IMG/VR virus record: IMGVR_UViG_3300032462_002418
Span: 1 to 27,950 of that record
Direction: 5' to 3' (one strand)
DNA from: a virus
Taxonomy: Duplodnaviria; Caudoviricetes
DNA length: 27,950 nt
Below the pieces are notes generated by a model. The model was not told the origin of the DNA and made no database searches. It saw only the letters and a list, made by a program, of their open reading frames with translations. Positions 1-27,950 of the stretch are shown here, one piece after another. The translations under genes were made by a program, and so were the position numbers. How positions within the stretch are numbered: the stretch's first letter is position 1; the number at the start of each line of letters is the position of its first letter.

Positions 1-3000
1 GCGTAGCACCGATAGTTTTTCGTCTAATATTTTTGGCGCTTCAAGTTGGGTAATCGCTTCTTGAAACATTTCAAGATTTTTGATAGCAATGTCGGTTTGT
101 ATGCCCTTCATTTGCGCCGCTGTAAGAGTGATGGCCATCCCCATTTTTTCTAAAACATCGGTAAAAGACATGCTTGCATCCATAAGATTGACATTCATCG
201 TCCGTGCAAGATTCTCAACTTCCATTTCTGATTTTCCAGAAATCCGCCCTAACTCTTTGACCCGTTTGCCGTAAGTCTCACTCAGCGCAGTGCCAACCTT
301 CATTCTTTCCCCTTGTTCTTTTACTAACTTTTCCAAAAACTGTTTTGGTGTTACTAGTGCAGATTTGGATTCTTCTTCCGTTAGTTTTGAGCCGTATTTA
401 GCTTGATTGTCTACAATGTCCTTAGCGGCCGCGCGCTGACGCCCTGCCTGAACCTCCCCAGAGCCTGTGGACACAAGTGCCGATGCCGCCAACTTGCTCA
501 AGACCTCTCCCTGCCCCAATATCTCAGGAAAGATATTTTTTATAGACGAATCGCCGACCCCTTTTTGATTTGCAATTGCTAAACCCGCTTTCGCAAAAGC
601 GCCCCTTTGTTGACTGGCGAGCATTGAAGATGCAGCGCCCTGTGCTGCTTTATTTTGTGCTTTTTGCTGGTTGATGTGGCCCATGATGCCGCCGCCAACA
701 AGCCCGATAAAGGCACCAACGGCAGTTCCGATACCCGGGGCAATCATGCTTCCGATTGCTGCACCAGCCGCCGCACCCATCCCCGCACCGCCCTTGGCAT
801 TTTTGGCATTAAGGGCAGCACCGCCAAAACCAATTGCAAGACCTAACAATGGATTAAACATTGCGATAGATGCACCGAGAGCCATGGCTCCCTGCGCGGA
901 TGGGTCCATTTTCTGAGAAAGCAACCCCATCCCTATTGATGCCCCCATGCCAGCACCCATTCCCCTGTTGGCCTTTTGGACCGCTTGCCCGGCACGGCTT
1001 TCTCGGATGCCACGCGCACCTGAACCTATTTTCTGAAGTCGCCTACCCATCAGAGTTTTGCGTTCTCGCGGACCAGTCTTCTCGGGGTCAGCACTATCGG
1101 GGGCCCACCAGTTGTTGTATGCACTGCCACCGTAAAACTTGTGCATTCTTGAGCCAAGCCTAGACTTTGGGTTGAATGTGCTTGAACCGGGACCAGTTGT
1201 CGCACCAACGCTAAGGGGCCATAGTCCCTTGGCGCCACCGCCCGTACCAAGATACTGCGAACTCCCCACTAGCCTTTTGCGATATTTATCTGCAGCCCAG
1301 TTTGTAAATCTTCCGCTGCTGGCCCCAGGACTACTTGGGCCAGACCCGAACCCTGTGGCACCATGCCTTTGAGATTCCCCGTATCTTCGTGCTATCCAAC
1401 TTTCTCGCCCGCGGATTATGCGCCCAGACGCAGTTACGGTTTTTCGCCCAGTTACCGGGTCAACGCGCTGGTCCGCAGGAACAAATACACCGGACCGAAA
1501 CCGTTGACCAGTTATATTTAATTGGCTTCGGTCAATTGGGCCCGTGCCGCGCCCAGTTTCGGAAAAACTTACCATCCGGCCCCCAACGCGCTGTTGGCTC
1601 AATGGTACCGCCGGTGCACGAACACGAGTACTCGGACCAGAACCGGGCCCTGCGCCCGGTCTGCCGTAACCCAGGGACGGAGTAGTTACATTGTTATTTG
1701 CTATTTGGTATCCAGGGTTTGATTTAAGGCCGTACGAGGCGACAGGTCTACCGTTGACGTTTACCACGCCTGCGGTTACATTCATATTGGCCGCCTGCCG
1801 AATTCCACTCTGGGATTGGCCAACCCACCCGCCAGCATTGTTTTTCATTTTTCTTGACATAGCAATAATTCCGGCTAATCCAGCGAACGAACCAATACCG
1901 CCCTCGCCCCCACCGGTCATGGCCTTCATCACCTTAGTGAAAATGCCTAGAAAGCTTGTGAATTTATCTACCATCAATGTGATGCCATCAACGATTTTTG
2001 TGATGAACGGCATTGCTTCTATGAACATCGCTCTAACGACACTTACGTAATTGCCGATTCTCGTTATCAATGTTCCGACCGCTGTTCCGAATTCAAGAAA
2101 GCTAGTTCGGTGCTTTATAAGTTCAGCGTTAAATGTTCCGAATTTTTCTTTTAGTTGTACCCATATTGGGCCGAGAATGTTTTTGAGCATATCTTCAATT
2201 ACCCCAGCGCCGTCAGTTAACGGTCTCAGGAAGTCAAGCATTCGGTTATAGCCCTCTGTGAACATTTTCCATTTGTCGGCCATTCTGGAAAACATGTCGA
2301 CCGAATCCGGTAGATAATCGCGGGTTAGGTGAATAATTAAATCTGAAACCTTTTGGGCCGCATCGGAAATCTTGTCAATAAACCCGCCCGTGCCAAAGGC
2401 CTCAATTTCGCCAAAAACCCTTTGAAATGTGGACTTAAAAATGCGCGAAACTTCCTCAAGTTCTTTTTTGACTGGTGCCAAAAATACCTGACCAAAATCT
2501 GCAAACTGATTTTTGAATCCAGTCATCGTTGCTTTAAACATGCTTATCAAGGTTGAGTTGACTGCCGCAAATTGCCCCTCAACGCCACCCATCTTTGCCA
2601 GTTCTCCGCTGGTAATGGCTTTAATTAAGTCGTCTTTGCTTTTTTTTCCGCCCCTAGTTTTGACTAATTTCTCGTATTCATCTAAAGCCTTTTTCATTTG
2701 TGGTCCAAGCTTTAGGGCCGATGCTTTAATTGAGTCGTATGAACCACCTACTTTTTGCAGTTCCCCAACAAGGTCGGCGGCTGCTTTTGTGCCCGTTTTC
2801 AGGTCTTGACCGGCGGATGCAAAATCCATCAACCCCTTGAGCATTGACGCACTTGAGGCATTAAATTTCCCAGTCTTATTAATAATTGCCCCATAAGCAG
2901 CGACGAGGTTATCCGTGCCGACAGCGGCCAATTCTGTATCATGAGTAAGCATCCGCATGTTTACTCTGGCCTGGTTTAGGGTGCTACCAAATTCTTTGCG

Positions 3001-3492
3001 ATTTGTTGTTGCAAATGCGTACATTGCTGCTTGCTGTTCGCGCATCGCTGCCGCCAGTGTGCCCGCGGCGATAGTCAGACCAGCCATTGCACCAGCGGTC
3101 ATTTTCATGGCACCGCGATAAAGCTTCATTATGCCCTGACCAATGGCAAAAAAGCCGTGAACCAACATCATTGCGGCACCCAACAGGACCATTTCGGCAA
3201 CGACGATTTTCAAGCTTCCCGTGACGAATTTCATCAAGCCCTTGCCCATCATTTGGACCATCTTGTCAAGACTGTCAAAATGTTTCTTCCATTTGCGGCT
3301 TGTATTTTTTAGGGTGTCAGCCGTTTTCCCATAATCCTGTATGGTCTTTTTCGCAGCGGCGGCATTATTGGCATTGCGTTTGCGAGACGTTCCTTCCGAC
3401 CTGGCAAGGCGCTCAAGTTTCCGGCGAGTTTTGTCAATGGCAGAATCATCAGACGATACTTCAATCTTGATTGTGACTTTTTCGTCAGCCAT
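1..3492 (-). CDS. Tail tape measure protein, 3' end beyond the left edge (>=1164 aa)
   Basis: ATG at 3492 reads MADEKVTIKIEVSSDDSAIDKTRRKLERL. No long minus ORF is listed here, consistent with a frame that stays open to the edge (spot-translated, not fully). Ala/Gly/Lys-rich helical sequence, with hydrophobic glycine-zipper stretches near 660-900. Lies directly downstream of tube and chaperone genes. Confidence 0.9.
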   Translation of the reverse strand, partial: MADEKVTIKIEVSSDDSAIDKTRRKLERLARSEGTSRKRNANNAAAAKKTIQDYGKTADTLKNTSRKWKKHFDSLDKMVQMMGKGLMKFVTGSLKIVVAEMVLLGAAMMLVHGFFAIGQGIMKLYRGAMKMTAGAMAGLTIAAGTLAAAMREQQAAMYAFATTNRKEFGSTLNQARVNMRMLTHDTELAAVGTDNLVAAYGAIINKTGKFNASSASMLKGLMDFASAGQDLKTGTKAAADLVGELQKVGGSYDSIKASALKLGPQMKKALDEYEKLVKTRGGKKSKDDLIKAITSGELAKMGGVEGQFAAVNSTLISMFKATMTGFKNQFADFGQVFLAPVKKELEEVSRIFKSTFQRVFGEIEAFGTGGFIDKISDAAQKVSDLIIHLTRDYLPDSVDMFSRMADKWKMFTEGYNRMLDFLRPLTDGAGVIEDMLKNILGPIWVQLKEKFGTFNAELIKHRTSFLEFGTAVGTLITRIGNYVSVVRAMFIEAMPFITKIVDGITLMVDKFTSFLGIFTKVMKAMTGGGEGGIGSFAGLAGIIAMSRKMKNNAGGWVGQSQSGIRQAANMNVTAGVVNVNGRPVASYGLKSNPGYQIANNNVTTPSLGYGRPGAGPGSGPSTRVRAPAVPLSQQRVGGRMVSFSETGRGTGPIDRSQLNITGQRFRSGVFVPADQRVDPVTGRKTVTASGRIIRGRESWIARRYGESQRHGATGFGSGPSSPGASSGRFTNWAADKYRKRLVGSSQYLGTGGGAKGLWPLSVGATTGPGSSTFNPKSRLGSRMHKFYGGSAYNNWWAPDSADPEKTGPRERKTLMGRRLQKIGSGARGIRESRAGQAVQKANRGMGAGMGASIGMGLLSQKMDPSAQGAMALGASIAMFNPLLGLAIGFGGAALNAKNAKGGAGMGAAAGAAIGSMIAPGIGTAVGAFIGLVGGGIMGHINQQKAQNKAAQGAASSMLASQQRGAFAKAGLAIANQKGVGDSSIKNIFPEILGQGEVLSKLAASALVSTGSGEVQAGRQRAAAKDIVDNQAKYGSKLTEEESKSALVTPKQFLEKLVKEQGERMKVGTALSETYGKRVKELGRISGKSEMEVENLARTMNVNLMDASMSFTDVLEKMGMAITLTAAQMKGIQTDIAIKNLEMFQEAITQLEAPKILDEKLSVLR

Positions 3493-3534
3493 TGGGTGCC
3501 CCAAGTAGTGGTAATAAGCCGACAGGACTAAATC

Positions 3535-13064: not shown

Positions 13065-13882
13065 ACAAGTGCTTTCCGTGGTTTGTTGTGTGCCGGGCAG
13101 ATTGGCTTAAACGAGCACCAATTACATAGTTTTGATACCGTTGTTGGGAACTCTCGTGTTTCGCATGCGCTTAAGATGTCGGCGTGAACCGCAACGATGT
13201 CCGATGCGACTTCATCAATTTCCCGTTCCGTTGGTTTTTTGGTGAATTTTATGGCTTCTTTAAGGAATAGTAACTCCAACTCTTCAATAGGTAAATTGGT
13301 TTTTGCCTTTAGCAATATGGCATAAATTGTTAATTGATACCATTTTTCGTCAAGCCATTCTTTTTTCTTTGGGGCCTTGCCGGTTTTGTAATCGCTAATC
13401 CTCAATGCACCCGCATCTGTTAATGAGTACCTGTCAACAAATCCCTTAACGGGAACACTCCCGCCAATTGGGCCGTTGACTTCAATCTCAATACCCGCCG
13501 GAACAATCAACTCGGGATTCTCTATAATCCATAGGTTTTCTAGACACCACCACGAATTCCATCGGAACTGTCGCACCTGTCCACCAGTAGAGAGGACCTG
13601 TTTGACCTGTTCGCCCCATTCGGATTTTGTCCACACATAGGAACACATTGCTTTAGCGTTTGCTAAATTACGCTCACCCGCAGGGCGTGCATAAAAGTGC
13701 TCCAAGACCTCGTGCACAAACGAACCCATCAACAGCGCTTCACTAGTCCCCTCGGGGATTTTGTCCAGCCTGCTGTACTTGTATTTAAGTTTGCATTGCT
13801 TCCATGTTGAAATAGAAGATGCCGATAAATACGGCGGTGGGTTTATTGGGTCAGGTAATTTACTTTGTGATGAGAGTTCCAT
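13061..13882 (-). CDS. PD-(D/E)XK exonuclease, RecB/AddB/Cas4-like
   Basis: LSASSI..WKQC, GSFVHEVLE, GFVDR, ISDYKTGK, QLTIYA, and C-terminal CNWCSFKPIC. The 1+3 Cys pattern matches Fe-S nucleases. Confidence 0.9.
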   Translation of the reverse strand: MELSSQSKLPDPINPPPYLSASSISTWKQCKLKYKYSRLDKIPEGTSEALLMGSFVHEVLEHFYARPAGERNLANAKAMCSYVWTKSEWGEQVKQVLSTGGQVRQFRWNSWWCLENLWIIENPELIVPAGIEIEVNGPIGGSVPVKGFVDRYSLTDAGALRISDYKTGKAPKKKEWLDEKWYQLTIYAILLKAKTNLPIEELELLFLKEAIKFTKKPTEREIDEVASDIVAVHADILSACETREFPTTVSKLCNWCSFKPICPAHNKPRKALV

Positions 13883-14531
13883 GGAAGGACAACCTTACTG
13901 CCTCGTCATGGAGTGCCTTGAGCATCTCCACGGGGGCGTCGGTTGCCTTACGAGGCTTTGGCAGGTCTCCTGCAATCTCAAGCCACTTGCTGTTCATCTC
14001 ATCTTTCTGTTCCTTGTTGAAAGTTTTGCTTAGTGCCACAATCGTATTGAATGCTTCAATCGCTTCGTCCGATACAGCCGGTGCGTCCATCGCTAGCTCA
14101 ATCTCTATCGCATCATCAGAGCGAGCCAAGTACAAAGCAACGCCAAGTGTTTGTGCTGCCTTTTTCAAAGCATCCGACACCGCGCCCTTGTAGTCATTGC
14201 CCAAATCAACGATGGCACCAGCTTTGGTGCGGTTAATTTTTTGCCCACCAATTCCGTCGCGCACCACGCGCCGAGCATATGCACCCTCACTCTCGGGGAC
14301 GGTATTCCATACAAGGCGAACACGAGCGATTACGAAATCAGTATCAATTGCATCGCGTTCGCACATCTCTACCGTGAAAGACCACTGGTCGACGCCGAGG
14401 GTTTTATTCAATCGGTTGATTACCTCGCTCACTGGGATGTAGGTGAGGTTCGTGCCCCCCTTGCTTAAGTTCCGTTCCATTTCTGGTGGGAATGCCTCAG
14501 TTAATTGCTGATATATATCAGTTGTTGTCAT
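13860..14531 (-). CDS. Rad52/Rad22-family (Sak-like) single-strand annealing protein
   Basis: LTYIPVSEVINRLNKTLGVDQWSF and KGAVSDALKKAAQTLGVALYL motifs. Confidence 0.88.
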   Translation of the reverse strand: MTTTDIYQQLTEAFPPEMERNLSKGGTNLTYIPVSEVINRLNKTLGVDQWSFTVEMCERDAIDTDFVIARVRLVWNTVPESEGAYARRVVRDGIGGQKINRTKAGAIVDLGNDYKGAVSDALKKAAQTLGVALYLARSDDAIEIELAMDAPAVSDEAIEAFNTIVALSKTFNKEQKDEMNSKWLEIAGDLPKPRKATDAPVEMLKALHDEAVRLSFHGTLITK

Positions 14532-15045: not shown

Positions 15046-16350
15046 CTAACAGATGATACTCACTCTTTTCCTCTGCGGCAACCCCAAACCGGTTAAATGT
15101 GTAAACGCACCAGTCGCAGAGTCAACTTGGTCGTCGTGGTCAACGGCTTCAGGAAATGAGCATAATTCGTCCAACCACGCCGTCAACCATGCCCCCCTAA
15201 GCAACCTGACGTTGCCGTTGGCGACCGCAGCCGCAAATGGACGGGCGCGGGTTAATTTGTCGCCCGTTGCCCGCATCCCCCCAAAATCAAACCCAGGAAG
15301 AATATATCTGGCATATTGGTCAATAATAGCCTTACCAGACGAACCCGGTTCTTGCTCCATGCGGACCGGAACCCCATGACCGTCCTCATAGGCGGTTTGA
15401 CTCACCAATTGTTCGACCTTCTCCCCGCTAACCCGAGCGCGCTTGACATCCAAAATGTACGATATGCCCTGGTCAAACAACATCAACGTACCAACGGTCC
15501 AGTCGGGATTCGGATTACTGGAACTTGGCTCGGTGGCGGCAAGGTCCCAAAATCTAACCGTTCTAGCAGACGATGTAATTTGCGGAATTTCATGTTGGTC
15601 CATAATGACCATTGATGTTCTGTCAAATAGGCTGCCGAGGGTTGTCGCCCACCAGTCCCCCTCTTCAAGCCGTTTTCTCTCAACGGGGTCCAGGGCTTGA
15701 AGGGCCTGTCGGTACGAGACAGCATCAATTCCGGGGTTATCCGTCAATTTGGACGGAACAAATATGCGATTCTCGGAGATTCCCTCAACGATGAACCGCT
15801 GTCTAACCCAATTGGGCGCTGGGTTTGAGGCACACCTCATCCTGAGCGGGACCTGTGAAAGCGGACCGCCAGATGGACGGCGCAAACGAGAAAACAGGTA
15901 CCTATAGTCCGATTCTCGGATTTCCGTAACCTCGTCCATTCCGATGAATTGAAATTCGCTGCCCTTATAACGCAGATAGTCATCTTTATTATTAAGGTAA
16001 CCGAATGTTACGCGAGCACCAGACGGGAATGTGGCGATGAAACTGTTGTTGTTCCAGTGGACATCATCGTACGCTGCGACCCATGTTCGGAAACGGTCCA
16101 TGAGAGCACCGGGGAGCGAGAGGTCGGCAAATGTGCGCCTGAACAAAATTGCAGAGTACCCAGGGACATCTACGTACTGAAGCGCCGCCATTAATAGGGC
16201 GCTGGATTTGCCGCCGCCTGCGGCACCTCCGAATAGGGCCTCAAGTGCGTAACACCTGAGAAACACCCGTTGGTTTAGCGACGCATCTTCAGGGCAATAC
16301 GGTGCTTCCTTGGGTTCGAGGTATTCAAGTACTTTTTCCCAGTCGGGCAT
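15046..16350 (-). CDS. terL: Terminase large subunit
   Basis: Walker A GGAAGGGKS, Walker B FIGMDE, coupling motif ASNP, nuclease motifs WDLA and HDDQVDS. Confidence 0.95.
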   Translation of the reverse strand: MPDWEKVLEYLEPKEAPYCPEDASLNQRVFLRCYALEALFGGAAGGGKSSALLMAALQYVDVPGYSAILFRRTFADLSLPGALMDRFRTWVAAYDDVHWNNNSFIATFPSGARVTFGYLNNKDDYLRYKGSEFQFIGMDEVTEIRESDYRYLFSRLRRPSGGPLSQVPLRMRCASNPAPNWVRQRFIVEGISENRIFVPSKLTDNPGIDAVSYRQALQALDPVERKRLEEGDWWATTLGSLFDRTSMVIMDQHEIPQITSSARTVRFWDLAATEPSSSNPNPDWTVGTLMLFDQGISYILDVKRARVSGEKVEQLVSQTAYEDGHGVPVRMEQEPGSSGKAIIDQYARYILPGFDFGGMRATGDKLTRARPFAAAVANGNVRLLRGAWLTAWLDELCSFPEAVDHDDQVDSATGAFTHLTGLGLPQRKRVSIIC

Positions 16351-16418
16351 TGTGTCTCCGTTTACAGTGTCCTCCTAGGTTAGACCATGATAATGGACTA
16401 CAGTAGTAAGGAACAATT

Positions 16419-16601
16419 ATGAACAAATTCATCGAGGGCACAAAAACGGCATTAAAAAATCGCAATACTGTAACAAATTTATTAATGGCATCATTTATAC
16501 TGTGTACGGCTATAGGCGCTGGTCTCATATTCCCCCCAGCGGGATTAATCGTGGCTGGCATTACATGTGGGATTCTCGGAATTCTGTTAGGTCTTGAATA
16601 A
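16419..16601 (+). CDS. Small membrane protein preceding the portal
   Basis: 60 aa with two hydrophobic segments and SD AAGGA. Small membrane ORFs are common just upstream of HK97-type portals. Confidence 0.75.
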   Translation: MNKFIEGTKTALKNRNTVTNLLMASFILCTAIGAGLIFPPAGLIVAGITCGILGILLGLE

Positions 16602-16603
16602 AT

Positions 16604-18583
16604 ATGGCATGGAACTCGTCTAGGAACAAGGGCCTCGGTCCATCGGCACTAAAGTCCCTGATTGGGCCTGGCGCGCCCATCGCACAAAACATGGGGTTGG
16701 CTGGCAAGGCGTACACGGACTCATGGGACATTGAACGTGCATACAGAGAAGGGATGCAACGAGTTACATGGGTTGCAAGATGCATTGATGCCATTGCTGG
16801 CAACCAGGCCCGCCTGCCCATCATGCTACGAAAAGATAACTCTCCCGATGGCGAAATAATCTCACGCAAAAACGCCAAGAAATCATCGCTTCTTGAGGTT
16901 CTAAATACCAAATCAAACATTGGCGAAAACTCATTCATCTTTCGTTATCGGCTTTCATCCCAATTACTGCTTGGTACGCGCGGCGCATTCATTGAAAAGG
17001 TACGGGGTCGCAACGGCGAGATTATAGGGCTGAACCTTCTCCCCCCGCAGCACACCGCGCCAATCCCTGATGCCAAGAAATTTGTCTCCGGATATGAAGT
17101 AACAATGCCAAACGGCGGGGTAATCGTCATGAGGCCGGAGGATGTCGTGTGGGTACGCAGACCTCACCCGCTTGACCCGTATCTCTCACTTACCCCAATG
17201 GAGTCGGCTGGTATTGCCATTGAAATTGAGACCTTTGCAAAACTCTACAACCGTAATTTTTTAATGAACGATGGCCGCCCAGGCGGGATACTCGTGGTCA
17301 AGGGCGAAATCAGCGATGACGACAAGAATGAGTTAAAGAATCGATTTAGAGGTAATTTGGCACACACGGGCACGACAACGGTTCTCTCTGCGGACGATGG
17401 CGCCGATTACGTTGACACCAGTGCATCACCACGAGATGCCGCTTATATTCAAATGCGGCAAATTACCAAAGAGGAAATTCTCGCATCGTTCGGCGTGCCA
17501 GAAACGGTTATTGGAAATGCGGCCGGTAGAACATTTAGCAATGCGGCCGAGGAAATCCGAGTGTTCTGGATGGAAACAATGTTGCCCCATCTTGAGCCAC
17601 TCGCTCGCGCCCTGGACGAACTTGACCCCGACAATTATGTGGACTTTGATTTAAGCGAGGTCCCCGTATTGCAACTCTACAAACAGGAACGTGAAAGATA
17701 CTCAAAAGATGAATTGTCTCAGGGTCTCATAAGTGTCAACGAATATCGGCTTGCCAGCGGAAGAAAAGAAGTAGATGCCGACCTTGCGGATTCATTGTTA
17801 ATGAACCCGAATCTAACCCCAATTGCAAACACAAAGAAAAAGATGGAAGAACCGCCAGTGATGATGGGCGGAGAGGGCGGTGCGCCTCCTCCTGGAATGC
17901 CACCAGAGGCTCCACCGGGAATGCCATCAGATGCCCTGCCACCAACAGAAGGGGCGCCTGACCCCAGCACCATGGCGGGTGCACTTGCTGCCGCAGCATC
18001 CGGGGTTGCGGGTGGTGCCCCCGAGACGGCAATTGAGCCAACGCCGCCAGGGTTGGCGGTCGCATCCGGCCCGATGTCGTTCAAGAGTGAAGAAATGGAA
18101 AATGCCCTTGAACGGTGGACTCAAATCCTAGACAGGTCACTTGAACGGGTTCTGGAAAGACAGCAACGAGTGGTTACGGAAAAATCGGCAGGCGCTAAAT
18201 CCAGAAAAGCGCTATTTGCTGGGACCCTTGACATAGAGTCAATTTTCGGCATAGATGTTTGGGGAAAACAAATGGACGAGGACATCAAACCCGTTCTATC
18301 CGCAATCATCAGGGATTCAATGGAGATGCAACAAATGCCCGTTGATGCAACGGAGGTTTTTGCGAAAGCCAACACCCATATGCTCAATATCAAAGAAATA
18401 AATACGGACACACAGTCACAAATCCGAAGCGCTATTACTAGGGCGACATCGGTTTCCGGGGAAGAGGCCCGTCATGAGTACTTTAGGAACGAGATAGTTG
18501 AAATATTCACAAATGTATTAGGCAAGGTTAGATTCCAGGTTGTTGCCAACGAGGCACGACAGGCATGGGAGCAAACCATTTAG
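16604..18583 (+). CDS. HK97-family portal protein with long C-terminal extension
   Basis: WVARCIDAIA, LLLGTRGAFI, NFLMNDGRPGGIL, EEILASFGVP, FSNA and ISVNEYR motifs, then a Pro/Gly-rich linker and a helical C-terminal domain of about 165 aa. Confidence 0.93.
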   Translation: MAWNSSRNKGLGPSALKSLIGPGAPIAQNMGLAGKAYTDSWDIERAYREGMQRVTWVARCIDAIAGNQARLPIMLRKDNSPDGEIISRKNAKKSSLLEVLNTKSNIGENSFIFRYRLSSQLLLGTRGAFIEKVRGRNGEIIGLNLLPPQHTAPIPDAKKFVSGYEVTMPNGGVIVMRPEDVVWVRRPHPLDPYLSLTPMESAGIAIEIETFAKLYNRNFLMNDGRPGGILVVKGEISDDDKNELKNRFRGNLAHTGTTTVLSADDGADYVDTSASPRDAAYIQMRQITKEEILASFGVPETVIGNAAGRTFSNAAEEIRVFWMETMLPHLEPLARALDELDPDNYVDFDLSEVPVLQLYKQERERYSKDELSQGLISVNEYRLASGRKEVDADLADSLLMNPNLTPIANTKKKMEEPPVMMGGEGGAPPPGMPPEAPPGMPSDALPPTEGAPDPSTMAGALAAAASGVAGGAPETAIEPTPPGLAVASGPMSFKSEEMENALERWTQILDRSLERVLERQQRVVTEKSAGAKSRKALFAGTLDIESIFGIDVWGKQMDEDIKPVLSAIIRDSMEMQQMPVDATEVFAKANTHMLNIKEINTDTQSQIRSAITRATSVSGEEARHEYFRNEIVEIFTNVLGKVRFQVVANEARQAWEQTI

Positions 18584-18689: not shown

Positions 18690-19193
18690 ATGAATCAAGA
18701 AATAAAATACAAATCTGGAACTGGTCAGGTCAACATTGACGAAGCCACGGGGATTGTTGAGTGTTTCGTAGCCGGTATCGGCAATAAGGATTCCGTTGGT
18801 GACATCGTAATCAGTGGTGCGTTTGCCAAAAGCCTCACCAGGCGCAAGCCAAGAGTCGTGTGGGGTCACAGTTGGAACGACCCAATCGGCAAAGTTCTTG
18901 AAATGTACGAAGTTCCACTGGGCGACCCGCGCCTTCCAGCCAAAATGAGAGATGCCGGCGTAGGCGGACTGTATGCAAAAGTCCAGTTTAACCTTAACTC
19001 CGAAAAAGGCAAAGAAGCATTTGCAAGCGTCGCTTTTTTCGGCGAAGACCAAGAATGGTCAATTGGTTATAAGACACTTGACTCAATTTTTGATGCCAAT
19101 CTGCAAGCAAATGTGCTTAAAGAGGTTGAACTTTACGAGGTTTCTCCCGTGCTCCATGGGGCCAATCACCTAACTGGCACAATTTCCATCAAA
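18690..19193 (+). other. HK97-type prohead protease domain (peptidase S78-like), aa 1-168 of the giant ORF
   Basis: DSVGDIVISGAF, VVWGHSWNDPIGK (catalytic His), EWSIGY (catalytic Ser), LYEVSPVLHGAN. Lies directly after the portal. Confidence 0.92.
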
Positions 19194-22100
19194 CACGCCG
19201 AGGAGACCCCATTAGTGACGGGGAATCCGTTCGCCAGCATGCTGCGGATGATTTCACCAGAACAGATGCCCCGCATTATTGCAGTGCCAGCGTCTACGGA
19301 AGGCGAAGAAAACGGAGAAGAGGATATTTTCTCGGAAGGACTGGCTCAAAAACTTTCAAAGGAGCAGCAGGGTAAAATTCAGCAAGAACTGTCAGAGCGG
19401 ACCAACTCACAAGTAGAAATTATTTCAGCAACGGAAGGTTCGTTGATTTTCAAGCGCACCGAGGACAGCGGAAAAACATCAACATTCAGAGTTGGCTATC
19501 ACACGCCAGATAATTATGAAACATTTATGTTTGGCAAACCAGAGGCCTATACATCTGTCGTAAAACCAGAAGTAGAGCAAAACATCGTGACAAAGCCAAA
19601 CCCAGACGAATTAGTCGTTGTGCCAAATGCGGGTGCGGCATACAGAAATGATGACGAAGACGAAATGAGTTCGTTGCTTGATGCTGTTAGTTCATCGTAC
19701 GGGAAATCTGCCGTTACACACTTGATTGAGTTACCGCAATATGCCATTAAGGATGCACTATCAATGTTGGAACCGGTTTTTCAATATCACAAACTGGAGA
19801 CATACACGTCCGATAAGGGAATTGGTATCAACGGCGTTGTGTCCGCGCAAGCGATGGATGCACTTCAGACAGCAGTTAAGGCCATTGGTCAAACAATCGG
19901 ACAGACCGCTGGAACATTGCGGACAATAGCGCAAGGATTCAACCCCAATGCAATTGACGGTGATGCTGACGGTTTCGCGCAAGACAACACTGCATTCATG
20001 CGCCCTTACATCCCCATCAAGAAACCCAATGTTGACCTACCTGATGTCGGCGGGAAGAAACGCAATGCCACGGAGTTACTGGACAAGCCAACAATAGACA
20101 CGGGTCCAAAATCAACCGTTGACCCCGCAACACTCGCTGGTCAACCGCGTCAAAGGGCATTGGCTGCCGGGACACTACAGCCACGGACGCGCGAAGACAT
20201 GATGTTCCTTGCTGACAGGCGACCACTAAACGCTGGTCTTGCCAAGTACTGGGACATGAACGATTCTGAATTAAATCTTGCGGGTCAAAGGTTACTTAGC
20301 ACCCGTCGCTCAACTGGCGCCGAGGGTCGTGATGCCGTTGATACCGAATTATATAAGGTCTCGCATGAGTTTGCCCGTAGAACTTCCTATGAACAGCAAT
20401 TCGGCAAAAAGTTTGTTCCACCAAAGAGTGCAGCCGCTCCCACAAAGTCGCCGGTACGGGAAGATGCTCCGAAGCCAGTAACGAAACCCGAAACCATTGC
20501 CGCCCGCAAACTGCGCGCCGAACTCGACCAGGAGGAAGAGGACGCCCTAGACGATGACGACAATTACCGAGACAGTCTTGACGAAGATGATGGGGGTGCC
20601 TCACTTCTTGATGGTGACGATTTTGCTTCACGTGGCGATGATAAACCCAAGTACAGCATTGACACGTACAACGCATTCAACGATGCGGTCCGTGACTTGA
20701 GCGAATTGCCAATGACCGATGAACATGAAGACCGGATTTCGGATTTCATAGAAGAAGCAGCGGCGAATATTGCCCCCAAGGACCGTCACCTTACGTCATC
20801 CCCCTTCTATATCGAATACATGCGCGAGGAAGCCATTGCCTCGTTGCTGGGAGATGTCCAATCAGCAGACGACCCATCTTTCCACTACCCCGACATCGCC
20901 GATGCCTGGATTGAAGCCAACATTGCAGATGTAGAACCAGACGACGGATTTGCTTCAGCTGGCAAAAAGAGCTCGTGGGGTGAAATTCTAAGAGCGCAAC
21001 ACCCCGACTTAGAGCGCAATATGGTGGCCCAAGCACTGCGTTCAAGCTTCATGGACGACAAGAACAATAGGTCCCGAATTTTGAGAATGAATGACGAGGA
21101 CCACGCAGACTTCAACAACATGGTGCGCAACGAAGCCCAGAGCATAGTTGATTACCACAACGCAAACGATGAGGGTAATGTCCGCACGGCAACCCTTCCG
21201 GACCATATTACACAAATGATTGATAAGTACGAAAAATCTTTGACGAATTACGAACCAGATGAGGGTCTTGGTTCACGCACTGATACAACGCCGTTTGATA
21301 AAATTGACACAGAGTTCAGCGGGGCACTTGACGGCGCTCACTACGATGCCCAAAACCAAGAATTGCATGTCGGTTTTAAGCGCACGGATGGCCCAACAAG
21401 TTGGTACACATATTCAGGGGTAACCCAAAAAGAAGTTGATGCACTTCACGATTCAAACTCTAAGGGCAGAGAAATTAACAAAATTAAGGGCAAGCACGAT
21501 GTAGAAAAAGCCCGCCCAGAAACCATTGACAAGATTACGAGCCCGCCAAAGGCGAAGTCCCCCATTGAACCAATAGATGTCGCGGATAGCAAGGCTCTTG
21601 CTTCCGCCCATTACGATTCGGGCGCTCAGGAGCTTGTAGTTACCTACAACGGGCCCGACGGAGAACCGGGCGGAACATATATTTACGAAGGTGTAACACA
21701 AGCAGATGCGGATGCATTTGACAGTGCTCCGTCTAAGGGTCGTGCAATTAATGAAATCAAGCGCACCAAAGCATTCCGTAAAGCCAATGCCGATGAGGTT
21801 GAAACCAGAGAATCAGCGCCATCGTTGGACTGGGCTTCAGCGGACCCAGACGACAACACAATAGAGAGTGGCTCTGGGTTATCGTACGAAATTCAAGAAA
21901 TAAGCTACGGCGGCGAGTTCAATGTCCGTGTCGGCAAGCGCACAAACAGTTATGCCGATGGACCCGGGTTTGATGAAATAGAAGAATCACCGACATTCAC
22001 GAGCAGGGAAGCCGCTCAGAGTTGGGCCGAAAGATACGACCACGAGGTTGTCCTCAGTGAACAACGAGCCGACAAACTCGCAGATGGGCGCACCGAAAAG

Positions 22101-25100
22101 ATTGATGTCTCACGCAGTTCTGCTTTGGAAAAAGCATCATGGAACGACCGCGACCAGGAACTGACGGTTAAGTACCGTGGCGGCGGAACCTACGTTTACG
22201 AGGGCGTGACCGAAGACGATTTTGATGACCTGAATACTGCCAAGAGCAAGGGCGCGGCAATCAACAGAATCAAGAAAACGCACACCTTCCGCAAGGCCGA
22301 TGAAGGTCTTGCTTCGCGCGGCGATGGTATGCCCCCGCAAAGTTATTTTGAGCCGCCCGACTACGACGAAGTAGAAGTAACTGATGACGACATGGACGAT
22401 TACTTTGAGAATAATGTCTACGGTATGGATGACGGAGAAAATGAGTTCCTAACGCGTTACTTCTCTGGTGGTCAACTTGGCACGGGGATTGCACCACTGG
22501 ATACTGAATCCGACCCTTACATGGAAGTGCTATTTGATAAGCGCCCCGACTACAAAACCACGGATAGGGCGCTTGTAGAAAAGCGCATCGCTGAGTTCCA
22601 ATCGTATCTTGAAGAGGGTCGACGGCGTTCGTACCGTGCCAATCTTGAAAGAAAGAAAAATCCAGATAAATACGAACAGGCGTACCAGGATTGGCTGGAT
22701 GCATCCGTTGACCCCGATGATGTTGGGCAGTATCTCGCTGATAACCCGGAGGAATACGACGGCGGTTTCGGTTCACGTGGCTTTGGTCGCGCTTATGACG
22801 AGCCACCAGATGACTATGATTTTAATAATGACGACTACGAGGAATACTTTTTTGACAGAGTTTATGACGGAAACGGTTCGGTTCTACGTGAATCGGAGGA
22901 TGAATTTCTAACGCGTTATTTCTCCGGCGGTGAACTTGGCATTCTTAATGCCGCCGATGAGACCGACCTGGGTTATATGGAAGAACTCCATAATAAGCGC
23001 CCTGACTACAAAACTACGGATAGGGCGCTTGCAGAAAAGCGCGTTGCCGAATTCCGTTCATACGTTGACAAAATAAATACACGGGATGCATTTTCTAATC
23101 CAGAAATGGAGAAGGCTTTCCGCGATTATTTCAATCGAGTAACCGATGCTGCGGACTACGACGATTTGATGGAGGTCGTAGAACGTAGGGGTGGGCGTAG
23201 CCGCTACGATAGTTTCGGTTCACGTGCATCAACGGAACAGTGGCCGACACCGTACGGCGATGAGCCAAGTGAATTCAACACCCGGGAAACACTAAGCCAA
23301 ATCGGCCGAGGAAATCTCGGGGCAATTTCTGGCGGGCGCACAAAGATGCGTGGCAATGAAATGGTTCTTCCTGTCAACAAGGACCAACAGGTAATTGTTG
23401 GATATAACGGCGGCGCTGATACTTATTACGTGCGCGCAGAAAAGATTATAAATAGCGGCAAGGACAAGGGTAAGAACCGTGTTCTCGCACAATGGAACGA
23501 TGTTTATGCCGAAGATGTCGGTGAAACCGCCTACAACGCTTCCCTGAGACCAGAATACCTAAGCGATGACAACAAAACTTTCTGGGAGCCAGCCCTAAGC
23601 GGTTCGGCTATTAACAAATTGGTTGACAAGCAAACGGGCAAATATTACGGCGCAGACGATGATGGTTTTGCCTCACGCGAGAGCATCCAAATCGACGAAA
23701 ATATACTTGACTTTAACGAACTTGACCGCGACACACAACGCGATTGGTTGCAGGACTATTACGAAGAGTTCGGAGGACTACCCCCAAGTAATCGGAACCA
23801 TGATTCGGATGCCGCGGAGGAAGAGTGGAATCGGATAGCGCAGAAAGAGCGCAGTGCGATAGCCGAGGAAATTCTTGCAAGGGTTGATGCTTTGCGTGCA
23901 GAAGGGGCTGACGAAGGTAATCCATTCCAGAAAAACGGCAACATACTTTATGTAGAGGAACTCGTCAAAAATGTCACGAATGTTGAATCGTCTCAAATTT
24001 ATGAGGCACTAGAAATACTTGAACGCTTTGATAATGCAGGCGAGGGTTTCGCCTCACGTGGCAAGAAAAAATGGGACGACCTATCTAGCGATGAGCGCTG
24101 GAACTTAACAGAGAGCCAGTTTGAGGAAGCAGAACGAATTCGGTTTGAGGAACTCTTTGACGAGGGGTGGCCCGACGACGAGATGACCGACAGGATGGAT
24201 AGTCCCCGCCTGACCGAAATTGCAGAAGAACTCGCAGAAGCCGCTTATGATAAAGACGGCGGCGGTTTCGCCTCACGTGGCAACACGTCTCCTGGTAACA
24301 GATTTGACAAACAACATTACGATGAATTCAGCAACCTCTTAGAAGAGGGCGGGATTACTAGCCTGCCCGTCAGCGATGACAATGTTTGGGATGCACTCAA
24401 CGAACGGGTTATGAGCTACGGAACAACTGGTAGTCGGCGAGATAAATGGAACGAAGCTGAACGCGACCTTATTAGACAAATGTCCAGTGACCAGAATAAC
24501 GGTAAAGACGTAATATCGGAATACAGAGACATCGTTGATGCTTGGCTTGCCGATAAATACCCGGACGATGATAAATTGCCGTTTTTCAAGGACGAAGAAC
24601 CTCTTGACCTTGACAGAGATGCATTCACGGAGCGGGCAAATCGTGAGGGCTTGGCCTCGCGTGGTGCACGCCGTTCAACTGCCGAAATGCTTGATGAGTC
24701 ACGCAATCTTATTGAAGACCCGTCTCGTTTCCGCAAGCGCGGTTACGAACTCACCGAACTAAATGATGCCGACAATGCACAACGCGGTCTTGACGGACTT
24801 CTTGAATACCGCAAACAATTAATTGAAGCACGCAACCGCGCCGCTGATGAGATGGGGACGGCAAATGGATACAACGGTCCACCGCGCGGTAAAAACTCGC
24901 GTAATTACGACATCATTGAGCAAATTGCGGCCGGCGATGACGATGATTGGACCCTGCTAGACGAGTATGGGTCTGCAATCCAAGCCGCTGATGATGTACT
25001 TGATAAGTACCGCGCAGACCAACAGTTGGCGAGAGACAGAGAAGAACACTCATCGGGAATCTGGAGCGAGTTGCAGAAGCACGGAAGGGCGAATGTTGAC

Positions 25101-27950
25101 ACTGACCTAGACCACCCAAAGTGGGGAGCAACACACGAAGAACAAATAGACTCAATGAGGGATGAAATGTCGTCTCATCTTCTCGGCGCTCGTGACATGG
25201 TTACGAACATGCCGCTTGACGATAACGATAATGAGACACTTAACGACTATGACTATATAAATTCAGAGCAAATCGCACAAATTGACGAACTCGATAAGAA
25301 GATTCGCAACGCGAAATCCCCTGATGACATAGATAAACTTAGTGACGAAGTTGACGCGATAGTCAGCCAACTTACGGACCAAGCCGAGGAACAGTATCGC
25401 AGGAATGAGGCATTCCGCAACTACGAAATGGTCAGCGCCCCGGAGGAAAGTGAATGGAGTGAGGCCTATCCGACCGACCTTTATTCGTTTAGTGGCGGAG
25501 ATGATGACAGTTTCGCCTCGCGCGGCACGGGGTCAAAAAAGTATTCTCCTTTTGGCGAAGGTCAAATAGCGCAACACATGGATGAACTTGAAACTGGAGG
25601 TCGTAATGCCGATGGACCTCTGCCACAACAATATAATCGCCGTGCCAAAACAATTCTCGATAACTGGAACAGCCTAAGCACTGAAGAAAAAAGACAATAT
25701 ATCAATTTAGCCGATGACGATGAATACAGCGATGATTTGGGGGACTTGGGTAGCATTGAGGAATTTGTCAGCGCACTAGAAACAGCGTACATGGATTCTC
25801 CCGGTTACGAAGATGACCGCGCGTCATACATGGGTTCCGGTGGTGACGATTTCGCCAGCAGGGGCGCTCAGCCAGATTATTCCTCAATAGAAGTTGTTGA
25901 TGTATCTGGTTCAAGTGCTCTTGAAGATGCCTATTACGACCCAGAGGTATCAGAACTGATTGTCATGTATCCCGGTGGAAGAATCTACATTTACGAGGGT
26001 GTAACTCAAGACGACCTCGCCGAATTCCGCGACAACACCAGCAAGGGTCGTGCTATTAATGACATTAAGCGCACGCACTCTTTCCGACGGGCCGATGAGG
26101 GAGACAGGGGAAATAGGTTCGCGCGCGAAGGTTCAGATGTCGCTCAAGAAATGGAAAAAAATCAACTTGATTCAATCTGGAATAGACTAAAACCAGAACA
26201 CCAAATCAGTTATCTCAAGAGGGTAACGGACCACGCAATAAGCAACGGTTCTGGCGAGTCAGCAGACGACCTTGTAGAAGCCGCCAAACGACGCGCACTC
26301 GACGACAGAGAGATGGCATCGCTAGAACGCCAAGCCGACGCCGCCGGATTGGGTGGTCGCAAAATTGATGTTTCCTCAAGCCAAGCCTTGAATTCAGTCG
26401 CGTACGATAAGGACAATCGGGTTCTATCGGTTGAATACCGTGGCCGCAACGGTGAGGGCACTGGCAAAATCTACGACTACGCCGATGTCCCAGAGTCTGT
26501 AGTAAGCGATTTGGAAAACGCTGACAGTCGTGGTGGTGTTCTTCGGACCATTCGCGACGATTACGAGTTCACAACCCGCGATGCACTCCCGGCGCACGCT
26601 TACGAAGGTTTTGGTTCACGCGATGATTCCAATAAGCCAGACCCAATTGATGGCATATTTGACGATGCTTCTACCGAAGCAGAATACCAAGCCCGCATGG
26701 ACGCGAGACGAGATGCACGCCGCGCAAAAAGTCCAGGCGGACTCACTCCGCCTCAGATAACTGCTAAAAAGCGGGCGGAAACTAGGGATGCGAGGGAGCG
26801 TGAAAGAGTAGCCGCTGAACGCGCAAACTGGACTCCAGAAGATTGGGCAAACCTAAACGCTGACCTTGAAGAAGATAGGGGCCGCGACGAAGCAGGCGAC
26901 GCCCGCAGCGGTTTTGCCTCACGTGGAAGAAATCCGCAACGCGGCATACGACGGGGCAGACTCATTGATAACGACAACACATTGAGCAAACTTCAAGAAC
27001 AAATGGAGAATGACCTTGACGACGGGGACGCCGTTAATAACTTTGCCCTTGCCGTCACCGAAGCAGTTATCCCAAGCGGGACCGGAAACCCACGACGACG
27101 CGAAGGGCGCGGGTTCCAGGCTGAACAGATGGACCAACTTGACGCTATTCGTGATTCACTAGAGCGACTCGGAATTGAATACCTAGCTGGTCGCCGCGGT
27201 CGTGGGCGAGCAGTCGATGGCGAACTTGCGCAACGTTGGGTAATCACAGATGCAGACGGGTTTGTATATGACCTAGACAACGGAACCGTACCGGCGCTCG
27301 CGTGGGCAGGAATGAGCCGTAACGACAGGGCTGCATTTGCAAATCAACAAATTGACAGAGTGCTTGCTGGTGGTGGATTTAATTCCCGAGACGAATTGGG
27401 CCGCGGTGGTGGTCGCCCAAAAGATGACCCATTAGCCTCATTTAAGGATTTACCCGAAGGCGCAATAGTCACACTTGTAGGCGACGAATTTACAATCAGC
27501 GGTTCTGACGGTTTTGGTTCCAGATTTACATATGGTTCTGAAACCGGCATCAAAACAAAAGATGAAATGTTTGAGTACCTCAATGCGCAATTAATTGAAG
27601 CCATTGAGCAAGCCGACCCAACATCTTGGAAAATGCCGTGGCGCGTTACATCAATGCCAAATAACCCGACCACCAAAAAACCTTATTCTGGTTCTAACTT
27701 TATGACACTGGCGATTATCGGGTCTGCGCGTGGGTACGAGAGCAAACAGTGGGCCGGATACGGACAATGGGAATCAGCCGGTGGTCAGGTGCGCAAGGGC
27801 GCTAAAGGCGTGCCAATTTTTGTTCCGATTCCGTTTAAATCAAAGGACAAAAAAGGCACCCTTGACCCCGCAACGGGCAAAGTAGCAGAGCGCAGTGGAA
27901 TGTCGTGGAGGGTGATTCGGGTTTTCAACCGCGATGAGGTTGATGGTCTT
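18690..27950 (+). CDS. Giant multidomain protein (>=3087 aa, runs off the right edge): prohead protease + linker-separated modules + 5 KTSC + ArdC-N
   Basis: Translated by hand from the ATG at 18690 (MNQEIKYKSGTGQVNIDEATG) to the window end (..RVFNRDEVDGL) with no in-frame stop. Missing from the ORF track because its stop codon lies outside the window. Confidence 0.93.
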   Translation, partial: MNQEIKYKSGTGQVNIDEATGIVECFVAGIGNKDSVGDIVISGAFAKSLTRRKPRVVWGHSWNDPIGKVLEMYEVPLGDPRLPAKMRDAGVGGLYAKVQFNLNSEKGKEAFASVAFFGEDQEWSIGYKTLDSIFDANLQANVLKEVELYEVSPVLHGANHLTGTISIKHAEETPLVTGNPFASMLRMISPEQMPRIIAVPASTEGEENGEEDIFSEGLAQKLSKEQQGKIQQELSERTNSQVEIISATEGSLIFKRTEDSGKTSTFRVGYHTPDNYETFMFGKPEAYTSVVKPEVEQNIVTKPNPDELVVVPNAGAAYRNDDEDEMSSLLDAVSSSYGKSAVTHLIELPQYAIKDALSMLEPVFQYHKLETYTSDKGIGINGVVSAQAMDALQTAVKAIGQTIGQTAGTLRTIAQGFNPNAIDGDADGFAQDNTAFMRPYIPIKKPNVDLPDVGGKKRNATELLDKPTIDTGPKSTVDPATLAGQPRQRALAAGTLQPRTREDMMFLADRRPLNAGLAKYWDMNDSELNLAGQRLLSTRRSTGAEGRDAVDTELYKVSHEFARRTSYEQQFGKKFVPPKSAAAPTKSPVREDAPKPVTKPETIAARKLRAELDQEEEDALDDDDNYRDSLDEDDGGASLLDGDDFASRGDDKPKYSIDTYNAFNDAVRDLSELPMTDEHEDRISDFIEEAAANIAPKDRHLTSSPFYIEYMREEAIASLLGDVQSADDPSFHYPDIADAWIEANIADVEPDDGFASAGKKSSWGEILRAQHPDLERNMVAQALRSSFMDDKNNRSRILRMNDEDHADFNNMVRNEAQSIVDYHNANDEGNVRTATLPDHITQMIDKYEKSLTNYEPDEGLGSRTDTTPFDKIDTEFSGALDGAHYDAQNQELHVGFKRTDGPTSWYTYSGVTQKEVDALHDSNSKGREINKIKGKHDVEKARPETIDKITSPPKAKSPIEPIDVADSKALASAHYDSGAQELVVTYNGPDGEPGGTYIYEGVTQADADAFDSAPSKGRAINEIKRTKAFRKANADEVETRESAPSLDWASADPDDNTIESGSGLSYEIQEISYGGEFNVRVGKRTNSYADGPGFDEIEESPTFTSREAAQSWAERYDHEVVLSEQRADKLADGRTEKIDVSRSSALEKASWNDRDQELTVKYRGGGTYVYEGVTEDDFDDLNTAKSKGAAINRIKKTHTFRKADEGLASRGDGMPPQSYFEPPDYDEVEVTDDDMDDYFENNVYGMDDGENEFLTRYFSGGQLGTGIAPLDTESDPYMEVLFDKRPDYKTTDRALVEKRIAEFQSYLEEGRRRSYRANLERKKNPDKYEQAYQDWLDASVDPDDVGQYLADNPEEYDGGFGSRGFGRAYDEPPDDYDFNNDDYEEYFFDRVYDGNGSVLRESEDEFLTRYFSGGELGILNAADETDLGYMEELHNKRPDYKTTDRALAEKRVAEFRSYVDKINTRDAFSNPEMEKAFRDYFNRVTDAADYDDLMEVVERRGGRSRYDSFGSRASTEQWPTPYGDEPSEFNTRETLSQIGRGNLGAISGGRTKMRGNEMVLPVNKDQQVIVGYNGGADTYYVRAEKIINSGKDKGKNRVLAQWNDVYAEDVGETAYNASLRPEYLSDDNKTFWEPALSGSAINKLVDKQTGKYYGADDDGFASRESIQIDENILDFNELDRDTQRDWLQDYYEEFGGLPPSNRNHDSDAAEEEWNRIAQKERSAIAEEILARVDALRAEGADEGNPFQKNGNILYVEELVKNVTNVESSQIYEALEILERFDNAGEGFASRGKKKWDDLSSDERWNLTESQFEEAERIRFEELFDEGWPDDEMTDRMDSPRLTEIAEELAEAAYDKDGGGFASRGNTSPGNRFDKQHYDEFSNLLEEGGITSLPVSDDNVWDALNERVMSYGTTGSRRDKWNEAERDLIRQMSSDQNNGKDVISEYRDIVDAWLADKYPDDDKLPFFKDEEPLDLDRDAFTERANREGLASRGARRSTAEMLDESRNLIEDPSRFRKRGYELTELNDADNAQRGLDGLLEYRKQLIEARNRAADEMGTANGYNGPPRGKNSRNYDIIEQIAAGDDDDWTLLDEYGSAIQAADDVLDKYRADQQLARDREEHSSGIWSELQKHGRANVDTDLDHPKWGATHEEQIDSMRDEMSSHLLGARDMVTNMPLDDNDNETLNDYDYINSEQIAQIDELDKKIRNAKSPDDIDKLSDEVDAIVSQLTDQAEEQYRRNEAFRNYEMVSAPEESEWSEAYPTDLYSFSGGDDDSFASRGTGSKKYSPFGEGQIAQHMDELETGGRNADGPLPQQYNRRAKTILDNWNSLSTEEKRQYINLADDDEYSDDLGDLGSIEEFVSALETAYMDSPGYEDDRASYMGSGGDDFASRGAQPDYSSIEVVDVSGSSALEDAYYDPEVSELIVMYPGGRIYIYEGVTQDDLAEFRDNTSKGRAINDIKRTHSFRRADEGDRGNRFAREGSDVAQEMEKNQLDSIWNRLKPEHQISYLKRVTDHAISNGSGESADDLVEAAKRRALDDREMASLERQADAAGLGGRKIDVSSSQALNSVAYDKDNRVLSVEYRGRNGEGTGKIYDYADVPESVVSDLENADSRGGVLRTIRDDYEFTTRDALPAHAYEGFGSRDDSNKPDPIDGIFDDASTEAEYQARMDARRDARRAKSPGGLTPPQITAKKRAETRDARERERVAAERANWTPEDWANLNADLEEDRGRDEAGDARSGFASRGRNPQRGIRRGRLIDNDNTLSKLQEQMENDLDDGDAVNNFALAVTEAVIPSGTGNPRRREGRGFQAEQMDQLDAIRDSLERLGIEYLAGRRGRGRAVDGELAQRWVITDADGFVYDLDNGTVPALAWAGMSRNDRAAFANQQIDRVLAGGGFNSRDELGRGGGRPKDDPLASFKDLPEGAIVTLVGDEFTISGSDGFGSRFTYGSETGIKTKDEMFEYLNAQLIEAIEQADPTSWKMPWRVTSMPNNPTTKKPYSGSNFMTLAIIGSARGYESKQWAGYGQWESAGGQVRKGAKGVPIFVPIPFKSKDKKGTLDPATGKVAERSGMSWRVIRVFNRDEVDGL
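21303..22292 (+). other. Three KTSC domains (21303-21497, 21573-21779, 22101-22292)
   Basis: Pattern S.AL..A.[YW]D...QEL.V.[FY]...Y.Y.GV.......SKG..IN.IK, matching the KTSC consensus as I recall it. Confidence 0.85.
25896..26570 (+). other. Two KTSC domains (25896-26087, 26364-26570)
   Basis: SSALEDAYYDPEVSELIVMYPGGRIYIYEGV..SKGRAINDIK and SQALNSVAYDKDNRVLSVEY..IYDYADVPESVVSDLENADSRG. Confidence 0.85.
27561..27950 (+). other. ArdC N-terminal ssDNA-binding domain (DUF1738-like)
   Basis: WKMPW, PNNPTTKKPYSGSN, GYESKQWAGYGQW, GGQVRKGAKG and VFNRDEVDGL: the ArdC-N motif series in order. Confidence 0.88.

Follow-up and report, generated by a model that had tools for sequence, protein, structure and literature searches.

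How is a protein of several thousand residues that begins with a prohead protease addressed and processed, and what would the rest of its chain do? The window, that is the whole stretch of 27,950 nucleotides analyzed here, holds such a protein next to the portal gene, in a frame of 3,087 codons without a stop and with an open 3' end.

15046..16350, minus strand: large subunit of the terminase, divergent from the portal gene
16604..18583, plus strand: portal protein, directly upstream of the polyprotein
18690..27950, plus strand: protease-headed polyprotein, first 3,087 of 3,834 residues

All 3,087 residues are identical to those of protein P0002 (3,834 aa), whose stop codon was located in an identical 50.9-kb contig (L001, genome G001), so that the single uninterrupted frame in the portal-protease slot that an earlier note on this DNA had described is confirmed. 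Extending the contig, a check proposed there, gave both the stop codon and the capsid gene, which does not directly follow the protease frame but is separated from it by seven genes. The read check also proposed there agrees: contigs from 4/4 sequencing runs (each of which may be the source of the DNA) give depth in 30/30 bins of the stretch with zero indels listed, no single contig piece covering it entirely. Together, the identical longer contig and this indel-free cover rule out an assembly chimera or a hidden stop. The runs with this DNA are freshwater and estuary metagenomes, with no RNA run among those listed. We found no slippery site behind the protease that could yield a short form by Gag/Gag-Pol-like frameshifting, the sole run of at least seven bases being A7 at 26155 (aa 2489). 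By searching the window frame with Pfam, we recovered the KTSC and ArdC-N domains that had been claimed, that is Peptidase_S78 at aa 21-165 (E 3e-9), five KTSC domains and ArdcN at aa 2962-3079, to which the full protein adds the zincin half of ArdC past the window end (MPTase-PolyVal, aa 3105-3228).

The divergent arrangement of terminase and portal (15046-18583) is found alike in relatives, with neck and tail genes pointing away from the head operon. A row of ParB-like, PAPS-reductase-like and ParB-like genes (8793-11222, minus strand), situated between the replication and the neck genes and also present in the complete relative G002, looks like a DNA-modification cassette. At 13-28 kb of G002 (L096-L097), a long run of 2OG-Fe(II) oxygenase, PhyH and desaturase-like genes adjoins the tail-fibre genes.

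The first 397 residues comprise the protease and a conserved region behind it.

18714..19193, plus strand: S78 (HK97-type) protease domain, aa 9-168, with His60 at 18867, Ser124 at 19059 and Glu150 at 19137
18711 and 19191, plus strand: Lys8 and Lys168, invariant, flanking the S78 domain, putative self-cleavage sites
19194..19880, plus strand: conserved post-protease region, aa 169-397, ending with a hydrophobic-Lys-Ala site (Lys397), matched in 118 of the 119 relatives listed

The protease domain is intact, as had been claimed: His60, Ser124 (in WSIGY) and Glu150 are invariant in 11/11 aligned proteases, while the TIGR01543 model gives the S78 head 52.3 bits, under its cut-off of 59. Lys8 and Lys168 are kept in the same 11 proteins, including three cultured-phage proteases at 36-39% identity, and an equivalent of Lys168 is present in 119 of the 120 fusions listed. 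The sequence xEFK[AST]L ends the delta domain of the capsid protein in 61/61 capsid proteins, whatever the linker variant of the genome; the HK97 capsid protein is cut at K103/S104 (PMC10275583). From these sequences, the S78 sites of the family appear to be hydrophobic-Lys followed by a small residue, unlike the linker described below. No known family was found for aa 169-397. We also considered whether Lys sites are purged from the cargo (266 vs 543 expected before dereplication), but the effect was weak after dereplication (0.69 vs 0.81 in control proteins) and was dropped.

Behind this region, the chain is punctuated by a recurring motif. By searching for [GDS][FL][AG]S[RA] with 2,000 shuffles as null, we found 15 linkers in the window and 18 in the full protein (shuffle mean 0.13, maximum 2), the 15 being in the coding frame and none in either of the two other forward frames.

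20619..27524, plus strand: 15 linkers, with first codons at 20619, 20946, 21264, 22305, 22764, 23211, 23664, 24045, 24264, 24648, 25509, 25848, 26607, 26910 and 27510
21318..22301, plus strand: KTSC domains 1-3 (about 21318-21503, 21588-21773 and 22116-22301) in a single linker-bounded segment
22314..23219, plus strand: two neighbouring modules, paralogous at 44% identity and each with linkers on both sides
25911..26564, plus strand: KTSC domains 4-5 (about 25911-26096 and 26379-26564) in one segment
27573..27926, plus strand: ArdC-N domain, its zincin half lying past the window

Linker-bounded segments measure 73-347 aa in the window, and the full 3,834-aa protein has 18 linker-bounded modules. 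Several observations indicate that the motif, which the earlier note had proposed as a module divider, marks true borders. First, across 143 KTSC or ArdC-zincin domains of 25 close relatives, 0/482 linkers fall inside a domain compared to 65 expected. Second, alignments to P0002 start (45%) or end (48%) within 10 aa of a linker in 200 cases, vs 12% at random. Third, modules are shuffled: their order differs between relatives, the ArdC module lying near aa 900-1,100 in one subclade and at 2,350-3,300 in another. Also, in relative P0017, linkers flank a module whose counterpart, at 82% identity, is a stretch within a giant of phage DSL-LC01 that has no such punctuation. Since KTSC domains 1-3 occupy one segment, a domain is not always its own segment. 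The 457 segments of the 25 close relatives have a median of 136 aa, so that cutting at linkers would release small acidic pieces. Internal starts at linkers find little footing, with in-frame ATG or GTG codons close to just 2/15 linkers in the window. In the linker, two positions are fixed, one hydrophobic and the other Ser, and the residue separating them is A, G, S or R; the motif has no fixed Lys or Arg and takes lineage-specific frames such as GFASRG, PLGSRS, GLASST, GLSSGR and TLRSSG, among others. We consider it likely that the linker is a cut site.

As for the modules themselves, 9/18 of P0002 have no match among the 119 relatives listed, and searches of PHROGs, NCBIfam and Atlas identified nothing of use besides KTSC and ArdC. 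No stand-alone small homologs of cargo modules were found among 2,941 ORFs of the relatives' loci, a limited set; G002 has one stand-alone KTSC gene.

The linker was also examined as DNA. Of 204 sites, 95% encode their Ser by TCN, compared with 69% in the background, and the codon preference is genome-specific; the sites vary synonymously, and 5% of them use AGY.

24045..24283, plus strand: 73-aa module between two linkers that have 20 identical bases in common, with a junction and raised depth in 3/4 runs
13860..14531, minus strand: Rad52/22-family recombinase

In 3/4 runs, which may stem from one campaign, a 40-base contig joins the end of this module (24254-24283) to its own start (24065-24074) via the 20 identical linker bases, and the contig depth of the module is 1.5-1.7x that of its flanks; the fourth run has one copy. 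This fits an in-frame tandem duplication of the module in part of the population, although the junction may instead stem from an excised circle. Thus, it is shown in part that linker DNA doubles as a recombination point for module gain, loss and duplication, and the Rad52/22-family recombinase would be a plausible agent of such shuffling.

Of 7,990 candidates scored in a search with aa 1-450, which covered proteins of 1,697-5,403 aa only, 279 were hits. Across the 120 relatives listed, for which cargo is described, it includes ArdC, KTSC, HTH, UvrD helicase, exonuclease, WYL and pentapeptide repeats. In the best 80 of 599 viral loci, 38 protease ORFs are complete (997-3,061 aa) and 42 extend past the end of their stretch; overall, S78 polyproteins of the family measure 997-5,358 aa. 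The fusion is not universal, since two related marine MAG contigs encode short proteases of 438 and 444 aa at 74% identity. Near-complete relatives are 132-173 kb long with sheath and baseplate genes. Given that G002 has two WhiB genes and that the closest cultured S78 proteases come from Gordonia phages, the host is probably an actinobacterium. These phages form a large family of 130-170 kb myoviruses. GTDB was not used for the host, since its four close hits come from MAG contigs assigned to unrelated phyla and are probably mis-binned. No cultured member of the family was found among the GenBank phages searched.

The fusion had been proposed in the earlier note as the address to the prohead. 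It may not be required for this: giants without the protease have the same N-terminal tag and linker.

19956..20009, plus strand: DGDxDG..QD.T tag, aa 423-440, candidate head-addressing signal
1..3504, minus strand: tape measure (1,571 aa in G001), called by its length and its position behind sheath, tube and chaperone

The tag is present in 108 of the 120 fusions listed and in seven protease-less giants of G002-G004, and as a head-addressing signal it is thus a stronger candidate than the fusion by itself. In the complete G002, the linker variant occurs in 2/169 ORFs, the polyprotein and a 2,693-aa giant 27 kb away, and the tag is found in these two only. Linker variants are genome-specific, and unlinked giants of the same genome have the same one. 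Besides the polyprotein, G002-G005 encode a tagged giant with linkers at a site apart from the head operon (L099:4525-12606, L104:1-9903, L112:10352-19690 and L109:5349-11000), with two or three more HExxH motifs. We think it probable that the cargo is packaged into the virion.

Is the linker confined to these giants? We trained a profile solely on each genome's head-side giants and scored it on the central part of tape measures, using 14 of 23 tape measures, those from genomes with long cargo sequence; related genomes among them are not independent. The genome's own variant was found in its own tape measure in 13/14 genomes (shuffle p <= 0.03), and the own tape measure ranked first in 10/14, with two ties (permutation p 5e-5; control region p 0.98). 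The window genome is the exception (rank 12 of 14, p 0.6), its tape measure having weak linker-like sites only, with the hydrophobic residue at 1348-1350 and 1156-1158. Tails normally attach to heads after packaging (PMC10052503), and a protease confined to the prohead would thus be an awkward reader of a linker that tape measures also have. Close to the N terminus (about aa 40-60), a hydrophobic-A/G-S site also occurs in most of the tape measures in L116-L132.

Which enzyme could then read the linker? Behind the S78 polyprotein come a gene with a PepSY domain, which is a zincin propeptide domain by its Pfam description, and then a second giant with HExxH at about aa 500-720. In the best 80 of 599 loci, HExxH is present in 68/68 zincin domains found; the remaining 12/80 stretches also lack the PepSY gene and seem to end before that point. 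Among 1.84 billion proteins searched with a profile, 97 zincin clusters were recovered, 96 with HExxH, nearly all of them giants with the domain at aa 500-720. The zincin model (pLDDT 72.6) matches zincins throughout its structure list, best, at a middling score, a peptidase domain of lethal-factor type (Z 8.3, rmsd 4.9, 176 aligned), and with Z 6.2 PPEP-2; Foldseek gave no hit for it at E <= 0.001. A linker lies just upstream of the zincin domain in 44/90 cases vs 8.3 expected, and inside it in 3/90. Linker type gave no whole-domain signal of covariation with zincin sequence once relatedness was allowed for (partial r -0.005 in 24 genomes and 0.03 in 14), a test weakened by the mean identity of 24%. 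Also, some loci with the zincin have few or no linkers within the available stretch, zincins are common among the cargo of the family, and part of the zincin subfamily has no obvious third-ligand Glu at the aligned place. From its position and sequence, the neighbouring zincin two genes downstream is probably the best candidate for the linker cutter, and this is the weakest step of the model. ArdC's own zincin was rejected as a general reader, relatives without it keeping linkers, as was a Prp-type protease (0/5 genomes). Zincins have been proposed as processors of polyvalent proteins (Iyer 2017, PMC5512222), and a conserved zincin of group 1 jumbo phages could aid maturation (PMC7824862).

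The PepSY-domain gene (L086:9338-10723, minus strand) lies directly behind the polyprotein in nearly all loci reaching that far; two Cys clusters and the C-terminal domain of its product are conserved as well. An N-terminal RCPxG...FTD...C motif, possibly a second addressing signal, is common to the zincin giant (L086:5029-9318) and a 662-aa head protein (L086:2025-4013), both on the minus strand, and occurs in 90/97 zincin giants.

Our leading reading, held tentatively and just short of even confidence, is that the cargo chain is towed into the prohead, freed at Lys sites, cut at its linkers by the zincin, and ejected in pieces. First, as HK97 biology and its position suggest, the S78 head would join the delta domain of the capsid protein during assembly. 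Second, S78 would cut the hydrophobic-Lys/small sites that are present at Lys8, Lys168, Lys397 and the xEFK/[AST]L of the capsid protein. Third, the remainder, that is the tag and the linker-bounded modules, is built like the protease-less giants of the family. Fourth, the zincin at the head of the second polyprotein, sequence-specific in its action, would cut the linkers of the proteins that exit through the tail, the tape measure included. Fifth, the pieces released may act early in infection, as ArdC, KTSC, HTH, helicase and exonuclease cargo suggests; an anti-defence function would be in line with ArdC (phrog_7245) and with the analogy to the Dar proteins of P1. The model leaves the access of a head-borne zincin to the tape measure unexplained, which we count against it.

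In the earlier note, the prohead protease itself cut the chain into small proteins. The data do not support S78 as the linker cutter: its apparent sites are hydrophobic-Lys/small, the linker has no fixed Lys or Arg, and the variant recurs in the tape measure of 13/14 genomes. A version in which S78 cuts both the Lys sites and the linkers, with a hydrophobic P2 and a small P1' in common and a relaxed P1, is unlikely in our view, although in each motif a small residue stands two positions after a hydrophobic one, and Arg-containing linkers (GMRS, GLRS) occur. Ejection proteins are substrates of the prohead protease in SPN3US and P1 (PMC10052503, PMC12810830), and linker type is weakly correlated with S78 sequence (partial r 0.27, p 0.047, 14 genomes; 0.12 with the neighbouring region as control). 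However, the putative P1 of the linker varies between A, G, S and R within one genome whereas Lys is fixed at S78's own sites, 103/161 S78 columns are invariant over 14 genomes despite their different linkers, tape measures have the linker, and in the available passages on SPN3US the protease yields N-terminal propeptides only, self-cleavage aside (PMC10052503).

We regard as quite unlikely that the linker is not cut at all but serves as a binding, unfolding or ejection signal, or is an in-frame recombination scar, the chain leaving the virion whole. The virion RNA polymerase of N4 and ArdC are delivered unprocessed (PMC5512222), and DNA-level copying, to which the TCN preference and the head-to-tail junction point, can spread a variant. 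The conserved 662-aa head protein could be a non-cutting reader: one of its domains is JAB-like (Z 6.6) and another part folds like the HipA/CtkA kinases (Z 14.2), with degenerate catalytic motifs, and by alignment, without the zinc-binding histidines and the catalytic Asp, it would be a binder at most. Against this stand the confinement of the motif to the coding frame, the synonymous variation and the AGY codons; a lone matched site in a tape measure 15 kb off would be hard to keep without selection.

A cut after the hydrophobic residue, made after injection by a phage peptidase of the HslV/proteasome-beta type with Thr1 or by a host protease, seems distinctly improbable. The HslV family prefers a hydrophobic P1, and an intact-looking gene of this family is present in G002-G005 with invariant Thr1, Asp and Lys. 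Its location, however, is away from the virion genes, and contigs that lack the family S78 also have it (15/19; 2/4 near-complete), while phage DSL-LC01 has the peptidase and a module-sharing giant with no repeated linker. Genome-specific linker variants fit a host enzyme poorly, and the absence of a Prp-type protease from the five genomes weighs here too. The HslV-family gene (L096:2846-3469, minus strand) adjoins WhiB and metallophosphoesterase genes, with no partner ATPase alongside, and the peptidase has 291 relatives in viral contigs.

It is very improbable that the modules, never packaged, are cleaved from S78 in the cytoplasm and act late in the producing cell: several 420-kDa chains would be demanding to fit in a prohead and related marine contigs do with short proteases, but the head-operon position, the common tag, the ArdC cargo and the limitation of the linker to giants and tape measure argue for packaging.

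The closest known systems each resemble part of this reading. In polyvalent proteins (Iyer et al. 2017, PMC5512222), as here, a large and variable multidomain head-gene protein has ArdC-N and a zincin MPTase, and co-delivery and zincin processing were predicted there. Their traits of unrelated domains in a variable chain, ArdC-N and MPTase hubs and a portal-terminase neighbourhood are all found in our family. In contrast, assemblin-like peptidases are described there as "always" C-terminal while S78 is N-terminal here, although this position is a reported feature that does not define the group. KTSC is not mentioned in that paper, and its available passages have neither a repeated linker nor a tape-measure link (PMC5512222). 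HK97-family prohead proteases likewise have intact His, Ser and Glu, a portal-adjacent gene and a Lys-type delta-domain site in the capsid protein, but are about 200-500 aa long as against the 997-5,358 aa and the distant capsid gene of our family. S78 is the sole head-maturation protease detected in the complete G002.

T4 gp21, SPN3US gp245 and P1 Pro belong to phages with head-packaged, ejected proteins, some of them proteolytically matured (PMC10052503, PMC12810830), the Dar proteins of P1 being anti-restriction cargo (PMC12810830). According to the available parts of these papers, the cargo proteins there have genes of their own and are trimmed of N-terminal propeptides at the motif that the prohead protease itself recognizes, whereas in our family a second motif links as many as about 20 modules into one chain. 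The cargo junctions have no such prohead-protease motif if S78 cuts at Lys-type sites, which the linker does not resemble.

The closest cultured S78 proteases (36-41% identity) are those of the Gordonia and Brevibacterium myoviruses ChisanaKitsune, GMA6, DalanDe and Cantare, which share the flanking lysines and have HExxH proteins in the head cluster, but whose proteases measure 417-502 aa (1,633 aa in DalanDe) with no repeated linker. In Gordonia phage DalanDe, S78 lies near the C terminus of its protein (L217:14632-19533) with about 1,120 aa before it, which makes this phage a tractable test of protease-towed cargo. Streptomyces phage Gilgamesh (L220:1-13635) and DSL-LC01 (L235:4801-14670) have head-cluster giants of 4,600 and 3,289 aa without the family linker, that of DSL-LC01 having modules in common with the family.

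The passages available from PMC3482391, PMC9503650, PMC7824862 and PMC10611076 have no such fusion, and no description of the family was found in the literature; subscription papers, bioRxiv supplements and the supplementary domain lists of the 2017 paper could hold one. Polyvalent proteins are already known; what this analysis adds is to tell the two motifs apart, to test the tape measures, and to describe the tag, the zincin in its fixed place and the apparent duplication at read level.

In its broadest form, which we consider possible but doubtful, the proposal is a virion with two proteases: a Lys-specific one that tows the chain, and a zincin that reads a genome-private barcode on all ejected giants and on the tape measure, so that genes recombined between barcodes become injected effectors. 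If true, this would be a natural plug-in cassette for protein delivery. It would answer how polyvalent virion proteins are addressed and processed, the latter a prediction of the 2017 paper, and it offers named candidate enzymes, named sites, and pairs of cognate and non-cognate linkers. It also points to a modular route for loading protein into capsids and to a large pool of small, unassigned early effectors in freshwater phages.
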